Source: Escherichia phage HEMP5
Sequence record: OR424388.1
Length of the DNA: 64,000 bases
Strand: one strand, 5' to 3'
In this document: positions 25,401 through 54,306 of the stretch, piece after piece
Position numbering within the stretch: the stretch's first letter is position 1
How the letters are laid out: the number at the start of each line of letters is the position of its first letter
The notes under the pieces: model-generated
Told to the model about the DNA's origin: nothing
What the model saw: only the letters and a program-made list of their open reading frames with translations
Database searches by the model: none
Translations under genes and position numbers: made by a program

Positions 25401-27214
25401 TGGTGCTTAACCCTATGCATGATTTCTTTATTTTTGCCGAGATTAAATCCGCGTTCGTTCGGATTTCCCAAATAACCACATGTTCTTCTTATTGTGTTCA
25501 TCTTTTTAGGATCAGTTTCTCCACAAATAGAACAAACAAATCCGTTTTCAGTAGGAGTCATTTCATGGGTACTTCCACATGTAAAACATTTATCTACTGG
25601 CATATTAACACCAAAATAATCTAAATGTTGTGCAGCATAATCCCAGACAGCCTCAAGACCTTTTAGGTTATTTTTCATATCAGGAAGTTCAACATAAGAA
25701 ATGTGACCACCTGTCGCAATGAAATGATATGGGGCTTCGCGAGAAATCTTTTCAAACGGAGTAATATTTTCTTCTACTGAAACATGGAAACTGTTAGTGT
25801 ACCATCCTTTATCGGTAACATCTTTTACACTTCCATATTTTTCTGTATCAAGTTTACAGAAGCGATAACAAAGGTTTTCAGCAGGAGTCGAATACAAACT
25901 AAAAGCAAACCCAGTTCTTTCAGCCCACTGTTTAAGACGAGCATTCATTTTAGTTAAAATTTCTTGTCCAATATCACGACCGACAAGAATATTCAATTCA
26001 TGAATACCAATGTATCCTAAAGACACTGAACTTCTACCGTTTTTAAATAACTCAATTATGTCGTCATCAGGTTTAAGACGAACCCCGAATGCACCTTCTT
26101 GATAAAGAATAGGAGCAACAGTAGCTTTAACTCCTTTTAAGGAACTAATTCTACACATCAAAGCTTCAAAACATAAATCCATTCGCTCATTGAACAATTC
26201 GATAAATTTCTGTTCATTGAACTGTGTTCCAATATAAGAATCCAACGCAATACGAGGAAGATTCAGTGTTACAACACCAAGATTATTACGTCCATCAAGA
26301 ATTTCATTACCGGTTGAATCTTTCCACGCACTCAAGAAACTGCGGCAACCCATTGGAGAAACAGGAATAGATGAGCCGGTGATAGCTTTATTGTTCTTAG
26401 CTGAAATAATATCAGGATACATTCTTTTGCTTGCACACTCTAGAGCAAGCTGCTTAATATCATAGTTCGGATCGTCTTTATAAAGATTAACACCTTCTTC
26501 AACGAACATAACAAGCTTAGGGAAAATAGGAGTTATCCCATCACGACCGAGGCCTTTAATACGATTTTTCAGAATTGCTTTCTGAATCATTCGTTCAGTC
26601 CAGTCAGTTCCCGTACCAAATGTAATTGTTACAAAAGGAGTCTGTCCGTTTGAACTAAAGAGAGTATTTACTTCATATTCATAAGCTTGGAATGCATCGT
26701 ATACATCTTTTTCTGTTTTAGATTGAGCATAATTTAACGCATCAGCGATTTGCCATTTTTCTGCATCCTCAATATGTTTTGCATAGGTGCGTTTAACATA
26801 AGGAGAAAGTACTTTATCTACATTCGCAAAAGTCGTTCCGCCGTATTGGTGAGAAGCAACTTGCGCAGTAATTTGTGCCATAATTGCAGTAGCAACTCCA
26901 ATTGATTTAGGAGTTTCAATCTGTGCATTACCTAGCTTAAATCCGTTTTCAAGCATTCCTTTTAAATCTACTAAACAACAATTAGTAAATGGAAGAGCAG
27001 GGGAATAATCAATATCATGGAAATGAATAATTCCGCTTTCATGCGCTTTCATAATAAAAGACGGGACCATATTTTTGGCAATGTGTTTAGACACAATACC
27101 AGCCATAAGGTCCCGTTGAGTTGGAAAAACACGAGAATCTTTATTAGCATTCTCGTTTAAAAGGTCTTTATTAGTTTTATGAATCAATCCTTCAATTTCT
27201 TTTTCAATTGTCAT
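25397..27214 (-). CDS. nrdD: anaerobic ribonucleotide reductase NrdD (glycyl radical enzyme)
   Basis: 605 aa continuous ORF; C-terminal zinc ribbon and glycyl radical motif RRTCGYLG; no intron interrupts it. Confidence 0.97.
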   Translation of the reverse strand: MTIEKEIEGLIHKTNKDLLNENANKDSRVFPTQRDLMAGIVSKHIAKNMVPSFIMKAHESGIIHFHDIDYSPALPFTNCCLVDLKGMLENGFKLGNAQIETPKSIGVATAIMAQITAQVASHQYGGTTFANVDKVLSPYVKRTYAKHIEDAEKWQIADALNYAQSKTEKDVYDAFQAYEYEVNTLFSSNGQTPFVTITFGTGTDWTERMIQKAILKNRIKGLGRDGITPIFPKLVMFVEEGVNLYKDDPNYDIKQLALECASKRMYPDIISAKNNKAITGSSIPVSPMGCRSFLSAWKDSTGNEILDGRNNLGVVTLNLPRIALDSYIGTQFNEQKFIELFNERMDLCFEALMCRISSLKGVKATVAPILYQEGAFGVRLKPDDDIIELFKNGRSSVSLGYIGIHELNILVGRDIGQEILTKMNARLKQWAERTGFAFSLYSTPAENLCYRFCKLDTEKYGSVKDVTDKGWYTNSFHVSVEENITPFEKISREAPYHFIATGGHISYVELPDMKNNLKGLEAVWDYAAQHLDYFGVNMPVDKCFTCGSTHEMTPTENGFVCSICGETDPKKMNTIRRTCGYLGNPNERGFNLGKNKEIMHRVKHQ

Positions 27215-49820: not shown

Positions 49821-50414
49821 TTATTTCAGAGAATTAATATATTCCTGAACATCGGCAGAGGTAGTTTCAACCCCAGAAATATTGCCATTAAAGGTTTCAA
49901 CTCGGGCAAGAGTATCTTCAATATCAACTTTAGTCAGTGCTGCAATTTCAACTACATCATCAGCAGTACTAATTCCAAGGGCATTCGCAGCACGAGTTTC
50001 ACGGATATATTCCAATTTAACTGCAAGTTCTTGGCGAGCATCATCTAACTCAACTACTTTCTTGGCGATTTCAATTCGCATTTCAGCATAACCATCAGCT
50101 TTAGTAGTCAACTGTTCAGCTGTTCGACGATATAGCAAGCCGAGTTTAGCATGCATTGTTACATCTTGACCTTCAGAAAGAAGCTTGCGAATTTCACGCT
50201 CTTTTGATTCGGCTTGCTTATTCTTTTCGACAATAAGTTCACGAATACGCTTTTCTTCATTAATAGATTTAACGGAAGCAGTTTTTAGATCTTTAATCTT
50301 ATCAAGTAGTTTTGCTGCCGCAGCAGTATACTGTTCTTCAACAGATAGATTTTTAGCCATAGCAGAACCAAGTTTAGTGCGAATAAACTCAACAATTTTC
50401 TTCAGTGTGTTCAT
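49821..50414 (-). CDS. coiled-coil protein (possibly PspA/IM30-like)
   Basis: 197 aa; long helical heptad-rich sequence; AAGGAAA RBS; the PspA resemblance is by eye only. Confidence 0.7.
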
Positions 50415-50456
50415 AGTATTTCCTTAGGTTAATTAAGATTTAAAATCCATGAGATA

Positions 50457-50633
50457 TTATACTCCGGATAGGTTGTAAACTATTTCAACATCGCCTTTTG
50501 CTGCTTTATAACCTTCAGCCCAAGATACAACCGAGTTTTTATCCGAAGATTCAAATTCTGGCATTGGGCTTTCGCCAATGTTCACGCAGTATGTTTCTTC
50601 ATTTTCGTCGAACCAAATAATTAAAGTAGTCAT
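50457..50633 (-). CDS. small acidic protein (58 aa)
   Basis: Hand-translated; ATG with GGAG RBS; MTTLIIWFDENEETYCVNIGESPMPEFESSDKNS... Confidence 0.35.
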   Translation of the reverse strand: MTTLIIWFDENEETYCVNIGESPMPEFESSDKNSVVSWAEGYKAAKGDVEIVYNLSGV

Positions 50634-50701
50634 TTATTTCTCCGTTTCTGTATTTGTTTTGATAAGTCTATAATAACACCGTCCTTGGTGTTTGTACACA
50701 A

Positions 50702-50965
50702 TTATTTCATATTATTGAAATATTCTTCTGCGATTTCGTCGTTATCATGGTAAACTTTAGAAGACAGTTTAACATAACTTTCAGCAGTGAACATGTTAAT
50801 CACAACCTTTACAGTATACCACTGACCATCTTCATTACCCATTACTGCGTAAGTTTCAAACATCGGATGGTCAGGACCGATAACTTTAATATCATTCACT
50901 GTACGACCAAAATCTTCTGAAACACATTTCATAAAGAAGTTGAACAGTTCACCGTAATTATCCAT
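50702..50965 (-). CDS. hypothetical protein
   Basis: 87 aa from ATG with GGAG RBS downstream of an early promoter cassette. Confidence 0.6.
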   Translation of the reverse strand: MDNYGELFNFFMKCVSEDFGRTVNDIKVIGPDHPMFETYAVMGNEDGQWYTVKVVINMFTAESYVKLSSKVYHDNDEIAEEYFNNMK

Positions 50966-51008
50966 TTTATTCTCCAAGTTGTTTTCTGTATCAGTAGTTG
51001 ATAGTTGT

Positions 51009-51038
51009 ATAGTACCATGGAAGAACGGGGATGTAAAC
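51009..51038 (-). promoter_or_regulatory. T4-early-type promoter (repeated promoter-leader cassette copy)
   Basis: -35 GTTTAC, -10 TACTAT, 18-nt spacer. Confidence 0.55.
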
Positions 51039-51172
51039 CGTTTTGTGAAAAATTTTTTAAAAAGTTTTGGGGGAATTCTAGGGCAGGGAGGGGCAATTAA
51101 AGGATAGGATAATATATTATAAAGGATAGAAACTAAATGATGCCTAGAGAGGCCCAGAAAGGTCTAGATGCC

Positions 51173-51199
51173 AAAAAGCCCCAACCTTTCGGAAGGGGC
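51173..51199 (-). terminator. rho-independent terminator at the distal end of the tRNA/stable RNA transcription unit
   Basis: GCCCC...GGGGC stem with an inner CC-UUUC-GG hairpin, followed by U5 on the minus RNA. Confidence 0.55.
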
Positions 51200-51500
51200 T
51201 AAGCCTTGCGGCAACCTTGTCGGGGTTCCACCTGCTAAGGCAAGTGTTTGTACGAAACGCCGGGATTCGAACCCGATTATTAAGTAGTTGACGCTACTCA
51301 ATATTTTTAAAAGGCCATATCTCGACCATATCCGAACGTTCCGTCAAAAACGCTACTCGGCTTACGGCAAAGATATTTCCTCGAATCGATAATTCGGTGC
51401 GCCGTTTCTGCTGTGATATAAGGGGGCATTAACAAAACATAAAGATTTATTAATGCCAGTCCTTAAACAGGGAACATCAGTCCGACGACTTGCCGGTAGC
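51200..51500 (-). ncRNA. region likely encoding the small stable RNAs that follow the tRNAs in T-even phages (RNA C/D-like)
   Basis: No ORF; contains a tRNA-like T-arm (CGGGUUCGAAUCCCG at about 51261-51276) without a matching acceptor stem; boundaries approximate. Confidence 0.35.
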
Positions 51501-51516
51501 GACCCGGCTTCTTGTT

Positions 51517-51591
51517 TGGTATCCCGCCCTGGGATCGAACCAGGACCGCAAACTTAGAAGGATCGTATGCTATCCATTACACCAGCGGGAC
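51517..51591 (-). tRNA. tRNA-Arg (anticodon UCU), CCA encoded
   Basis: Hand-folded cloverleaf: 7-bp acceptor stem, T-arm CCUGG-UUCGAUC-CCAGG, anticodon loop CUUCUAA. Confidence 0.8.
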
Positions 51592-52213
51592 GTAATTTAT
51601 TTAAAAGACAAGACAAATCGGAAATCTCATCTTTTTCTAAAACTACCAAATTTTCTAAAGCTTTCCATTTACAAAGATCTCTATCTCTTTTATATCCTTT
51701 GACTTCTATATAAAAATCATAAGTGGGTAAATAAAAATCAGGAAAATAGAGATGTTCTGAACCTTCCCATTCGTAAGGAATTGGCTTTATTTTATTAGTA
51801 TATTTGATATTGTGTTCTTTTAAAAACTTAGCAACTTTTAATTCCCAGGTCCCTTTAAATTTAAACCCGTCAAACTCATATGTTTTTACTCGACCAGAAA
51901 CATTAGAAGCAGAATATGAATCAGGATTATCAAGAACAGCTTGCCGCATTCTTTTAGAATGTGCTTCTTTGCGTTCATTAGACCATACATATCCAGTATT
52001 GGCTTTTCTAAGTTTTTCTCTAGTTTTATCAGAGACTTTTATTTCTTTACCTAGTTCTTTGGCTTTGGTAAATTGATTACTACCTTTAAGACCATAACGA
52101 GGGTTATTAGGGCCGCTCATATCTAATCTATTTGGGTTAGATTTGCACCGTTTTTCATGCTGCTTTAGTGAATTTAAATTTTTACATTCTTTAGAACAAT
52201 ATTGACAAAGCAT
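51554..52213 (-). CDS. putative nuclease with N-terminal C2HC zinc finger and C-terminal PD-(D/E)xK-like motif; possible free-standing homing-type endonuclease
   Basis: 219 aa from ATG with GGAG RBS; CQYCSKECKNLNSLKQHEKRC and HLYFPDFYLP...DFYIEVKGYK; the last about 12 codons overlap the 5' end of tRNA-Arg; no GIY-YIG motif. Confidence 0.65.
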   Translation of the reverse strand: MLCQYCSKECKNLNSLKQHEKRCKSNPNRLDMSGPNNPRYGLKGSNQFTKAKELGKEIKVSDKTREKLRKANTGYVWSNERKEAHSKRMRQAVLDNPDSYSASNVSGRVKTYEFDGFKFKGTWELKVAKFLKEHNIKYTNKIKPIPYEWEGSEHLYFPDFYLPTYDFYIEVKGYKRDRDLCKWKALENLVVLEKDEISDLSCLLNKLRPAGVMDSIRSF

Positions 52214-52282
52214 AATTTTCTCCATGAATTTTATATAGATATTTATTCATGGAGAAGTTGACTGCTCTACCTAATCAAAATA

Positions 52283-52356
52283 TGGCCCAGACCAGATTTG
52301 AACTGGTAACCTTTCCCTTATGAGGGGACTGCTGCTAACCATTGAGCTACAGGGCC
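52283..52356 (-). tRNA. tRNA-Ile (anticodon CAU, lysidine-type; formally could be Met)
   Basis: Cloverleaf with T-arm ACCAG-UUCAAAU-CUGGU and anticodon loop CUCAUAA; one U-U mismatch in the acceptor stem. Confidence 0.75.
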
Positions 52357-52362
52357 TTGATA

Positions 52363-52435
52363 TGCTGATTGACGGAATCGAACCGCCGACCTTCTCATTA
52401 CAAGTGAGTTGCTCTACCTACTAAGCTAAATCAGC
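52363..52435 (-). tRNA. tRNA-Thr (anticodon UGU)
   Basis: Cloverleaf with T-arm GGCGG-UUCGAUU-CCGUC and anticodon loop CUUGUAA. Confidence 0.8.
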
Positions 52436-52440
52436 AAAAC

Positions 52441-52530
52441 TGGCGGAGGCGATAGGATTTGAACCTATGAGTCGCCGGAGCGACTGCCGGTTTTCAAGAC
52501 CGGTGCATTAAACCACTCTGCCACGCCTCC
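52441..52530 (-). tRNA. tRNA-Ser (anticodon UGA), class II with long variable arm, CCA encoded
   Basis: 90 nt; acceptor GGAGGCG/CGCCUCC; anticodon stem CCGGU/ACCGG with loop CUUGAAA. Confidence 0.85.
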
Positions 52531-52532
52531 AG

Positions 52533-52606
52533 TCTCCATACAAGGATTTGAACCTTGGACCTCCTGATCCCAAATCAGGCGCTCTACCAAACTGAGCTAC
52601 ACGGAG
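52533..52606 (-). tRNA. tRNA-Pro (anticodon UGG)
   Basis: T-arm CAAGG-UUCAAAU-CCUUG; anticodon stem CCUGA/UCAGG with loop UUUGGGA. Confidence 0.85.
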
Positions 52607-52616
52607 TAAATTAAAT

Positions 52617-52690
<74 letters not shown>

Positions 52691-52695
52691 AAATT

Positions 52696-52782
52696 TGGTG
52701 CGAGAAGTGGGACTCGAACCCACAAGGAAATCATTCCGCAGCATTTTAAGTGCTGTGCCTTTACCAATTTGACCATTCTCGC
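52696..52782 (-). tRNA. tRNA-Leu (anticodon UAA), class II, CCA encoded
   Basis: 87 nt; acceptor GCGAGAA/UUCUCGC; anticodon stem CAGCA/UGCUG with loop CUUAAAA; first gene of the cluster. Confidence 0.85.
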
Positions 52783-52788
52783 GCTATA

Positions 52789-53397
52789 TTATTTATTACG
52801 TGAAAAAGACTGTTCTATCAATTCTGGACACTTTCGTTCTATCCATTTTCTAGCTTTTTGTGGGCTTATACCTATTATTTTAGCAGCTTTACTAACCCAT
52901 CCAAATTTAGAATAATCGATTTTAACTAATTCTTCGTAAATTTCATCAGTTAAAATCTTTTCATTAATATTTACCAGTAAATGATATAATTTATTATCAT
53001 TAGCAATTTTAATGAATCTTTTATAGTTTCCGCCTTTACTTAAACCTAATGAAGTAATTGCAGATGATATAGTAGCCGAATTTAATAGTGCGTTTAAAAT
53101 TTCTTCATCACTAACATTATAACGCTTTCTATTATTTTTAATATTTTTACCAGCAAAAGTATCAGTTTGCGAATGGCAATTTGGACATAATAATCTTAAA
53201 TTTGATTTAAGATGATTTTTGTTATTTCCATCAATATGGTCTAATTGTAGAACAATATGCTTATTTTGCCATTTTGAAATTTTACAAATTGCGCACTCAT
53301 ATGGAAAAATATTTTCTTTTATTATTTTGTCTTTCAGCTTTCCTGTACTAAAATTTGGATGTTTTCCTTCAAAAATTTCAGCTAATTTAGTATCCAT
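52789..53397 (-). CDS. HNH-family endonuclease (free-standing homing-endonuclease-like)
   Basis: 202 aa from ATG (the six-frame ORF begins at an upstream TTG); HNH motif HLDHIDGNNKNHLKSNLRLLCPNCH; stop abuts the tRNA-Leu 5' end. Confidence 0.8.
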   Translation of the reverse strand: MDTKLAEIFEGKHPNFSTGKLKDKIIKENIFPYECAICKISKWQNKHIVLQLDHIDGNNKNHLKSNLRLLCPNCHSQTDTFAGKNIKNNRKRYNVSDEEILNALLNSATISSAITSLGLSKGGNYKRFIKIANDNKLYHLLVNINEKILTDEIYEELVKIDYSKFGWVSKAAKIIGISPQKARKWIERKCPELIEQSFSRNK

Positions 53398-53496
53398 AAT
53401 ATGATTCCCAATTATTAACAAAGGCTCTCAAACAAGAACCCTTGATGATAGAGGGTATTAATCAGTGCGGTATGAGTTAATAATAACAAATAATTC

Positions 53497-54012
53497 TTAA
53501 AGCAAATTAAACATTTTAACGGTAGGCAAAACAATTTCTTCTTCTATATAAGAGTATTTAACACTCTCAACTACACGCAAAAAATCATAATCATAATACT
53601 CAGAAGCATTACCTAAAATATTAATAAGTCCTTCAAGCACTTTATTACCATTCACAAAGAATAAGTCAAATACACGTTCTTCATCTTCTTCAGATTTATT
53701 ACCAAGATCAACTTCTATGCGAAAGACCTTTTTAATGAATTCTGGATAAAGCTGGTCTGAGAACAGTCCTTCAACTAAGTATTCATAAATAAAAAGAGAT
53801 TGCTCGCTGAACAAACCATTACCACAATAGCGCTCAATTTTAGTACTAGAATATCTGCTTTTAAACTTCTTTAAAAGATACTGAAATTGTAAGATTTCAT
53901 GCTCTTCTACGCCAAACAGTGTTTTGGTTTTATAGTTGTCACCATCATTTTCCCAGGTAGTGACATCAATTACGTAGCCCTGCGGAATTGTAGTACCTAA
54001 ACAAATATTCAT
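53497..54012 (-). CDS. hypothetical protein
   Basis: 171 aa; ATG start. Confidence 0.65.
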   Translation of the reverse strand: MNICLGTTIPQGYVIDVTTWENDGDNYKTKTLFGVEEHEILQFQYLLKKFKSRYSSTKIERYCGNGLFSEQSLFIYEYLVEGLFSDQLYPEFIKKVFRIEVDLGNKSEEDEERVFDLFFVNGNKVLEGLINILGNASEYYDYDFLRVVESVKYSYIEEEIVLPTVKMFNLL

Positions 54013-54015
54013 TTT

Positions 54016-54306
54016 TCACCACGCTGCGTTAATGTAAGTATATTTAATACATTCAAGACCCAAAGGATTCTTGAAAATATCATATTCAAGAGGACCTTTT
54101 TCTGTTTCAATAAAGAAATCAAAATTTACTGTATTAAATTTACGGTCTTCCTTCACTAATTTAACTTGTGAAGATGAACGGTCAATGTAAACCTTTTCAA
54201 CTTCAAAACATGTTAAAATGCCATAATCATCAATCAAGGCTTTAGCTGCTTCTTGATCATATTTATATCCATTTTCAATGGATGATACTTTAGCATAAAG
54301 AATCAT
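54016..54306 (-). CDS. hypothetical protein
   Basis: 96 aa from ATG (the six-frame ORF starts 2 codons upstream at TTG). Confidence 0.6.
   Translation of the reverse strand: MILYAKVSSIENGYKYDQEAAKALIDDYGILTCFEVEKVYIDRSSSQVKLVKEDRKFNTVNFDFFIETEKGPLEYDIFKNPLGLECIKYTYINAAW

Follow-up and report, generated by a model that had tools for sequence, protein, structure and literature searches.

An HNH endonuclease gene of the F-TflIV clade in the tRNA-Gln position of a T4-like phage tRNA cluster

Free-standing homing endonucleases of the T-even phages are well known, as are SegB in the T4 tRNA cluster and the F-Tfl enzymes of the T5 tRNA region, and the gene described here is of this already known kind. 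The closest characterised relative of its product is T5 F-TflIV (hegA), with 35% identity over 170 aa (residues 16-184, E 2e-22) and a tblastn coverage of 84%, by which homology the protein belongs to an F-TflIV-like clade. F-TflIV is an HNH site-specific endonuclease of the T5 tRNA gene region (Akulenko et al., 2004, cited in PMC2330249 and PMC5714182). Like the protein studied here it carries HTH modules after an HNH domain (the InterPro domains in the T5 record are HNH, LuxR-type HTH, and Fis-type HTH), its gene is also situated among tRNA genes, 23 nt after tRNA-Ile2, and it too shows a presence/absence polymorphism, being found in 24 of 328 T5-like records. The corresponding slot in the hegA-less phage IME178 holds two small ORFs and tRNA-Leu(UAA). 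However, T5 is a Demerecviridae phage in which hegA displaces another set of genes, and F-TflIV has an N-terminus that is 25 aa longer and lacks the first HTH module, which appears as a gap in the alignment.

Two groups of T4 enzymes are also pertinent. SegB is a free-standing homing endonuclease encoded within the same tRNA cluster; it was shown to cut within the tRNA genes of phages that do not have it and thereby to cause the tRNA region to be inherited preferentially (PMC2330249). In contrast to the protein studied here, SegB has a GIY-YIG fold and its slot is between tRNA-Ile and tRNA-Arg; segB is absent from the DNA that we analyzed, where an unrelated nuclease gene takes that slot. MobA-E resemble the present gene in being free-standing HNH enzymes inserted intergenically, several of them with middle promoters (PMC2988022, PMC2790892), and they and the class of the present gene fall into His-Me finger group 1 (PMC5714182). 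They differ in having no significant sequence similarity to it (the only other HNH-like match in the DNA analyzed has an E of 0.17) and in lying between protein-coding genes, whereas the present gene displaces an RNA gene. GenBank already labels the gene "HNH endonuclease" in dozens of records and "F-TflIV" in one, and it has its own PHROG family. A literature search, with most subscription journals outside its scope, returned no paper on the gene, on its replacement of tRNA-Gln, or on its tRNA-Gln orthologues in other genera.

The stretch of DNA examined (the window, 64 kb) is from a Tequatrovirus, that is, a T4-like phage, the best DNA matches to the region being Tequatrovirus genomes at 92-97% identity. 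Its gene order is collinear with that of T4 (e.8 – tRNA cluster – trna.2/3/4 – ip genes – 57B – 57A – gene 1), and the local combination of genes is mosaic, as no record covers 80% of a 3.8-kb query. ARAGORN identified seven tRNAs in the window, all on the minus strand, in the order Leu(UAA), Gly, Pro, Ser, Thr, Met(CAT), and Arg (51517-51591); the CAT tRNA that ARAGORN calls Met is labeled tRNA-Ile in the T4 record. A search with Infernal against Rfam at E<=1 over positions 50400-54100 recovered the same seven and no eighth tRNA, nor any group I intron, and neither half of the T4 tRNA-Gln, allowing up to 3 mismatches, had a match anywhere in the 64-kb window. In the T4 RefSeq record the tRNAs number eight, Gln leads in the direction of transcription, and between trna.2 and tRNA-Gln there is only a 97-bp spacer without a gene. 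The original prediction had counted seven tRNAs without tRNA-Gln here, against eight with Gln first in T4, and both counts are correct. It had also named two observations that would speak against it, a tRNA-Gln found by a tRNA scanner in the window and an HNH gene at the same position in T4; the scanners detected no such tRNA, and T4 has no HNH gene there.

Comparison with T4 base by base revealed that the HNH ORF (Table 1) stands in place of the tRNA-Gln gene. Nucleotides 10-71 of the 73 in tRNA-Gln are exchanged for 616 nt, consisting of 4 nt, the 609-nt ORF, and 3 nt. The transcribed strand of T4 reads ...GTTAATAAT-TGGGAATTA-GCCAAG...(tRNA-Gln)...TTCCC-AG-C-GCGAGAATGG (tRNA-Leu) and that of the window reads ...GTTAATAAT-TGGGAATCA-TATT-ATG...(609-nt ORF)...TAA-TAT-AG-C-GCGAGAATGG, the 97-bp intergenic region upstream of the slot being retained. 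When the window and T4 were aligned with 19 other loci, the junctions were alike in all 12 carrier loci (the window and 11 GenBank phages), varying only by C/T at position 8 of the 5' stub and C/A at the spacer. What survives of tRNA-Gln, 9 nt at its 5' end and 2 nt at its 3' end, shows that the tRNA preceded the HNH gene. The locus does not have the features of a group I intron-encoded endonuclease, with no intron family at E<=1 and just 9 nt and 2 nt of tRNA-Gln left. A search of IMG/VR with the exact junction pattern gave no match, and the conserved intergenic pattern matched three T4-like contigs and no others in that database. The proposal that a homing-type HNH gene abutting the tRNA cluster had been inserted at, or had replaced, the first tRNA position is thus upheld, with its coordinates exact, by the T4 comparison and by the presence and absence of the gene among relatives described below.

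Table 1. Features of the tRNA region and loci used for comparison
Feature	Position	Strand	Details
HNH endonuclease ORF	52789..53397	-	ATG to TAA, 609 nt, 202 aa + stop
tRNA-Gln 5' stub, 9 nt	53402..53410	-	TGGGAATCA (T4: TGGGAATTA); TGGGAAT[C/T]A; locus alignment
tRNA-Gln 3' stub (AG) and the C that is the spacer before tRNA-Leu in T4	52783..52785	-	locus alignment
tRNA-Leu(UAA)	52696..52782	-	ARAGORN and Rfam; now leads the cluster; 5' end 6 nt past the HNH stop codon
Remaining tRNA cluster	51517..52690	-	Gly, Pro, Ser, Thr, Ile(CAT), 223-aa nuclease ORF, Arg; ARAGORN, Rfam
Second putative homing nuclease, 223 aa	51554..52225	-	endonuclease I-like; in the T4 segB slot (tRNA-Ile(CAT) to tRNA-Arg)
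171-aa ORF	53497-54012	-	hypothetical protein (phrog_2290, RB32ORF135c-like); between trna.2 and the tRNA promoter; absent in T4
MotA-dependent middle promoter of the tRNA cluster	53473..53506	-	sequence same as T4; MotA box TTTGCTTTA 53506-53498
tRNA-Gln(UUG) loci compared	L002 4459-4531, L018 3089-3161, L024 3911-3983, L030 and L031 257-329		

The HNH protein matches PHROG 14736 ("HNH endonuclease") from end to end with an E of 5e-124. The Pfam HNH match (PF01844 group) is below the gathering threshold (17.3 vs 21.4 bits, E 0.005), and precomputed Pfam hits are present for two orthologues, P0003 and P0004. Sixteen residues are invariant among 26 aligned full-length homologues (C35, C38, W43, H54, G57, N66, L67, C71, P72, N73, C74, H75, T78, G166, W167, and P179), and among these are the catalytic motif of HNH enzymes and the four cysteines of a zinc site, while a GW...PQK motif is conserved toward the C-terminus. 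In this the protein agrees with the HNH (His-Me finger) class, which is defined by a beta-beta-alpha-metal motif having a catalytic His, a structural Asn, and an Asn or His that binds metal, commonly between CxxC...CxxC zinc ligands. In the AlphaFold2 model an HNH/zinc domain (residues 1-88) is followed by two helical HTH-like modules (97-141 and 151-201), the GW...PQK motif being located in the last of these; confidence is high within domains (mean pLDDT 89.7), with low-confidence linkers between them and a pTM of 0.50. The model therefore has the arrangement of free-standing homing endonucleases, in which a catalytic domain is linked to separate DNA-binding modules. Foldseek gave no significant match for the whole model. 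By tblastn the HNH gene has no paralogue in the window. The best match after the gene itself, with an E of 0.17, is the sole other HNH-domain-like stretch, at 25655-25777 on the minus strand, and may be a Mob-type HNH gene.

The position of the ORF also bears on its expression. T4 has a mapped middle promoter, PtRNA, at 72593, and the MotA box, with the consensus (a/t)(a/t)(a/t)TGCTTtA, is separated by 12 +/- 1 bp from the -10 element (Hinton, 2010, PMC2988021). T4 coordinate 72593 is an A located 7 nt after TATTAT, and in the window the MotA box is followed by a 12-nt spacer, the -10 element TATTAT (53485-53480), and the equivalent inferred start, A53473; a promoter is annotated at the equivalent place in the Lutter record. 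Since this promoter is conserved upstream, the HNH ORF should come first among the cistrons of the middle-mode tRNA precursor, behind a 76-nt leader that runs from the inferred start site to the ATG, and we infer that it is transcribed in that manner. Free-standing endonuclease genes of T4 as a rule have middle or late promoters (PMC2988022). A generic scan for sigma-70 promoters and terminators was uninformative because the promoter is of the MotA type. The 3' end of the HNH mRNA would be set by the RNase P cut at tRNA-Leu, the HNH stop codon lying 6 nt before that tRNA, much as the 3' end of the segB mRNA has been proposed to come from processing of the downstream tRNA-Arg (PMC2330249). It is a speculation that ribosomes might bind at the GGGA of the 5' stub, which stands 8-12 nt ahead of the ATG. 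The leader also contains a hairpin (53415-53440, minus strand; AAGGGUUCUU-GUUU-GAGAGCCUUU) directly before the tRNA-Gln stub, and SNPs among relatives concentrate in the loop of this hairpin (GTTTG, GCTTG, GTTAG, GCTTA, and GCTAA). With a z-score of only -0.65 the fold of this 5' UTR hairpin is not significant, and we do not claim that it sequesters the ribosome-binding site.

Among T4-like phages the slot is an either/or polymorphism. The HNH gene was found in 63 phage records, at ~99% DNA identity, and tRNA-Gln in 433, together against ~500 records that have the flanks; the two are therefore mutually exclusive alleles, of which the HNH allele makes up ~13%. Presence and absence in close relatives, which had been suggested as a sign of homing, thus take the fixed-site form typical of free-standing homing endonuclease genes. 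The co-isolated phages Pu-Krd-SF4 (tRNA-Gln) and Pu-Krd-SF5 (HNH) have nearly no differences in flanks of ~440 nt and ~320 nt. The clusters of carriers differ greatly: they comprise 7 to 10 tRNAs, segB and the 171-aa ORF may each be present or absent, and there are replacements of other tRNAs as well. Mean pairwise identity across the same genomes was 99.27% for the HNH gene, compared to 95.7% for trna.2, 96.1% for the 171-aa ORF (orf171), 96.4% for 57A, and 97.7% for 57B. The GC content of the HNH gene is 26%, vs 35% for the window. Its ORF is intact in each of the 12 copies examined, and dN/dS values of 0.08 for copies in the genus and 0.10-0.25 for orthologues of different genera indicate purifying selection. 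Taken together, the population evidence indicates a functional gene that recently arrived in many backgrounds.

The flanks of the slot are less straightforward. We found no carrier-specific substitutions in the 97-nt upstream spacer or in tRNA-Leu, and the flanks showed neither immunity SNPs nor signs of co-conversion. The SNPs that lie 15-30 nt upstream are unlinked to the HNH gene, which counts against a simple picture of homing. As the flanks are without linked differences, an enzyme that cuts non-carrier genomes near the place of its own gene could distinguish self from target only by the deleted core of tRNA-Gln or by the junctions. Judged from these sequences, any immunity of the carrier allele would have to stem from the deletion of the tRNA-Gln core.

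Closer but uncharacterised orthologues are encoded in comparable places on metagenomic contigs of other T4-like genera. The product of one on a Marfavirus-like Klebsiella phage contig (P0002, 68% identity) is encoded 15 nt after an intact tRNA-Gln, the gene exactly replacing the 83-nt tRNA that follows tRNA-Gln in PhiKpNIH-6, where it is annotated as tRNA-Asn. Those on two Roskildevirus-like contigs (P0003 and P0004, 58% and 57% identity) replace tRNA-Gln(UUG) and ~100 nt by comparison with Erwinia phage Cronus. The last codons of the HNH ORF in the Roskildevirus-like contigs (…KPM*) come from sequence also present in the HNH-less Cronus (L025 4590-4609, L029 about 1420-1440), and so the insertion took its stop codon from the flank. 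The homologue in Salmonella phage SE_PL is 66 nt after tRNA-Leu(UAA), and four more distant homologues that we sampled (37-46% identity) are all inside tRNA arrays, one of them 40 nt after tRNA-Gln. The full family has 5500 homologues at E<=1e-5. In a small, hand-picked sample that is not a statistical survey, 10 of 10 family members (the window, L024, L025, L026, T5, SE_PL, L032, L033, L034, and L035) are in or beside tRNA genes, and four of these contexts involve tRNA-Gln.

The Marfavirus-like contig provided two further observations. Its intact tRNA-Gln beside the HNH orthologue (L024 3911-3986) has a change in the T-loop, GGTTCAAGTCC for GGTTCGAGTCC, that is present in 0 of 21 Marfavirus records; this single observation could represent a self-immunity change. 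The sequence after its HNH gene (GCGAGACCAAGCTGGTAA...) was considered as a tRNA-Leu relic in common with Tequatrovirus, but as neither Rfam nor ARAGORN called a tRNA and the alignment is weak, it stays a hint only.

That tRNA-Gln was replaced by the HNH gene, and that the slot is polymorphic, is essentially certain. The reading that we favor, with a probability of roughly three in four, is that the gene is a free-standing HNH (His-Me finger) homing endonuclease gene of the F-TflIV clade which has converted the tRNA-Gln slot, uses the tRNA middle promoter, and has as its predicted target the tRNA-Gln region of non-carriers; endonuclease activity and this target are probable from sequence comparison. 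The gene would be read first from the MotA-dependent middle transcript with which the tRNA precursor normally begins, and RNase P cutting at tRNA-Leu, 6 nt past the stop codon, would make the 3' end of its mRNA. During co-infection with a phage that does not have the gene, the two HTH modules would attach the protein to the DNA of that phage, where it would make a nick or a cut in or next to tRNA-Gln, and repair templated by the HNH-carrying genome would bring the gene in at the expense of tRNA-Gln. The carrier is proposed to be immune because its own target is gone, and its cost would be the loss of one tRNA that is non-essential in T4.

This reading has to be set against others. A nuclease domesticated to the benefit of the phage, whether by excluding competitors or by promoting recombination or amplification of the tRNA cluster, would fit the strong purifying selection (dN/dS 0.08-0.25) and the keeping of the same locus in three genera, and it has a parallel in SegB of the same cluster, which was recently reported to amplify anti-defence tRNA loci (PMC13096335). 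However, only ~13% of Tequatrovirus records have the HNH gene, it does away with a tRNA gene, and an either/or distribution with constant junctions is what classically marks a homing element. Domestication is consequently rather unlikely as the explanation, though it and homing are compatible with each other. The unlinked flanking SNPs would fit an inactive relic, a protein that no longer cuts DNA and whose allele is moved only by ordinary homologous recombination between co-infecting phages. The moderate frequency of the HNH allele is in keeping with such a relic, and there is precedent in that several T4 homing-endonuclease genes are known to be defective (PMC2790892). We nonetheless consider it improbable because of the purifying selection: all 12 ORFs are intact, the catalytic and zinc ligands are all conserved, and dN/dS stays well under 1 whether copies of one genus or of different genera are compared.

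The bare presence/absence pattern, and nothing more, would also be produced by the reverse polarity, with the HNH gene ancestral and tRNA-Gln gained later in most phages. We give this hardly any credence, as the 9-nt and 2-nt stubs of tRNA-Gln make sense only if the tRNA came first, and tRNA-Gln is both the majority state and more diverse than the HNH gene. Its variant, in which the endonuclease is intron-encoded within a split functional tRNA-Gln, is opposed by the failure of ARAGORN and of Infernal with Rfam to find a group I intron or tRNA halves.

Phage tRNA genes are now viewed as counter-defence and translation-boosting cargo, and what adds or removes them therefore matters for host range. 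The locus would be a clear-cut example from nature of how a selfish nuclease gene can remove a single tRNA gene, with one HNH gene lineage found at tRNA-Gln in three T4-like genera, and its protein is a candidate tRNA-gene-recognizing endonuclease that is directly testable. It also offers a possible reason why tRNA sets differ so widely between otherwise near-identical phages. For annotation, a T4-like phage with seven tRNAs and without tRNA-Gln carries a real allele and is not a scanner miss. A wider proposal, which we put forward tentatively and with more doubt than belief, is that the F-TflIV-like HNH clade is a specialist parasite of phage tRNA arrays that recognizes tRNA-gene DNA, here tRNA-Gln(UUG), and swaps in for single tRNAs across genera. 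It would then be a main driver of the patchy tRNA sets of T4- and T5-like phages and, through target-site escape, of the hypervariability of the tRNA-Gln anticodon stem.

Several side observations were made on tRNA-Gln(UUG) and on the other variable slots of the cluster. The anticodon stem of this tRNA is hypervariable, with changes that are fully compensated, and the rest of the tRNA is conserved. The Tequatrovirus stems are TAGCA/TGCTA (135 records) and CTGGA/TCCAG (298 records), and those of Marfavirus are TCCGG/CCGGA and CCGGA/TCCGG; tRNA-Gln alleles are only ~89% identical, whereas neighboring tRNAs are ~99% identical. Escape from the HNH endonuclease and escape from host tRNA-targeting defences are candidates for the cause of this hypervariability.

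The 223-aa nuclease in the segB slot has a Pfam Phage_endo_I match below the cut-off (E 1.6e-4), a match to phrog_15137 ("endonuclease", E 1e-40), and an N-terminal Cys/His motif (CxxC...H...C); it has no GIY-YIG domain and no similarity to the SegB of T4 or Killian. The last 38 nt of its gene overlap tRNA-Arg, and RNase P processing would therefore remove its stop codon. Elsewhere it is found only in vB_Eco_F25 (100% identity) and in IME341 and EcWhh-1 (97.5%). The 171-aa ORF, whose stop codon overlaps the MotA box, is polymorphic independently of the HNH gene, as all four combinations occur. In CM8 and RB18 a GIY-YIG segB-like gene is in place of tRNA-Pro, and in Lutter and OE5505 a 160-aa ORF without a Pfam hit is in place of tRNA-Thr; such replacements of single tRNAs by other genes were seen at L009 2180-2788, L020 2267-2917, and L006 and L011 2129-2611. 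The fullest tRNA cluster that we saw, in ph0021, has 11 tRNAs.
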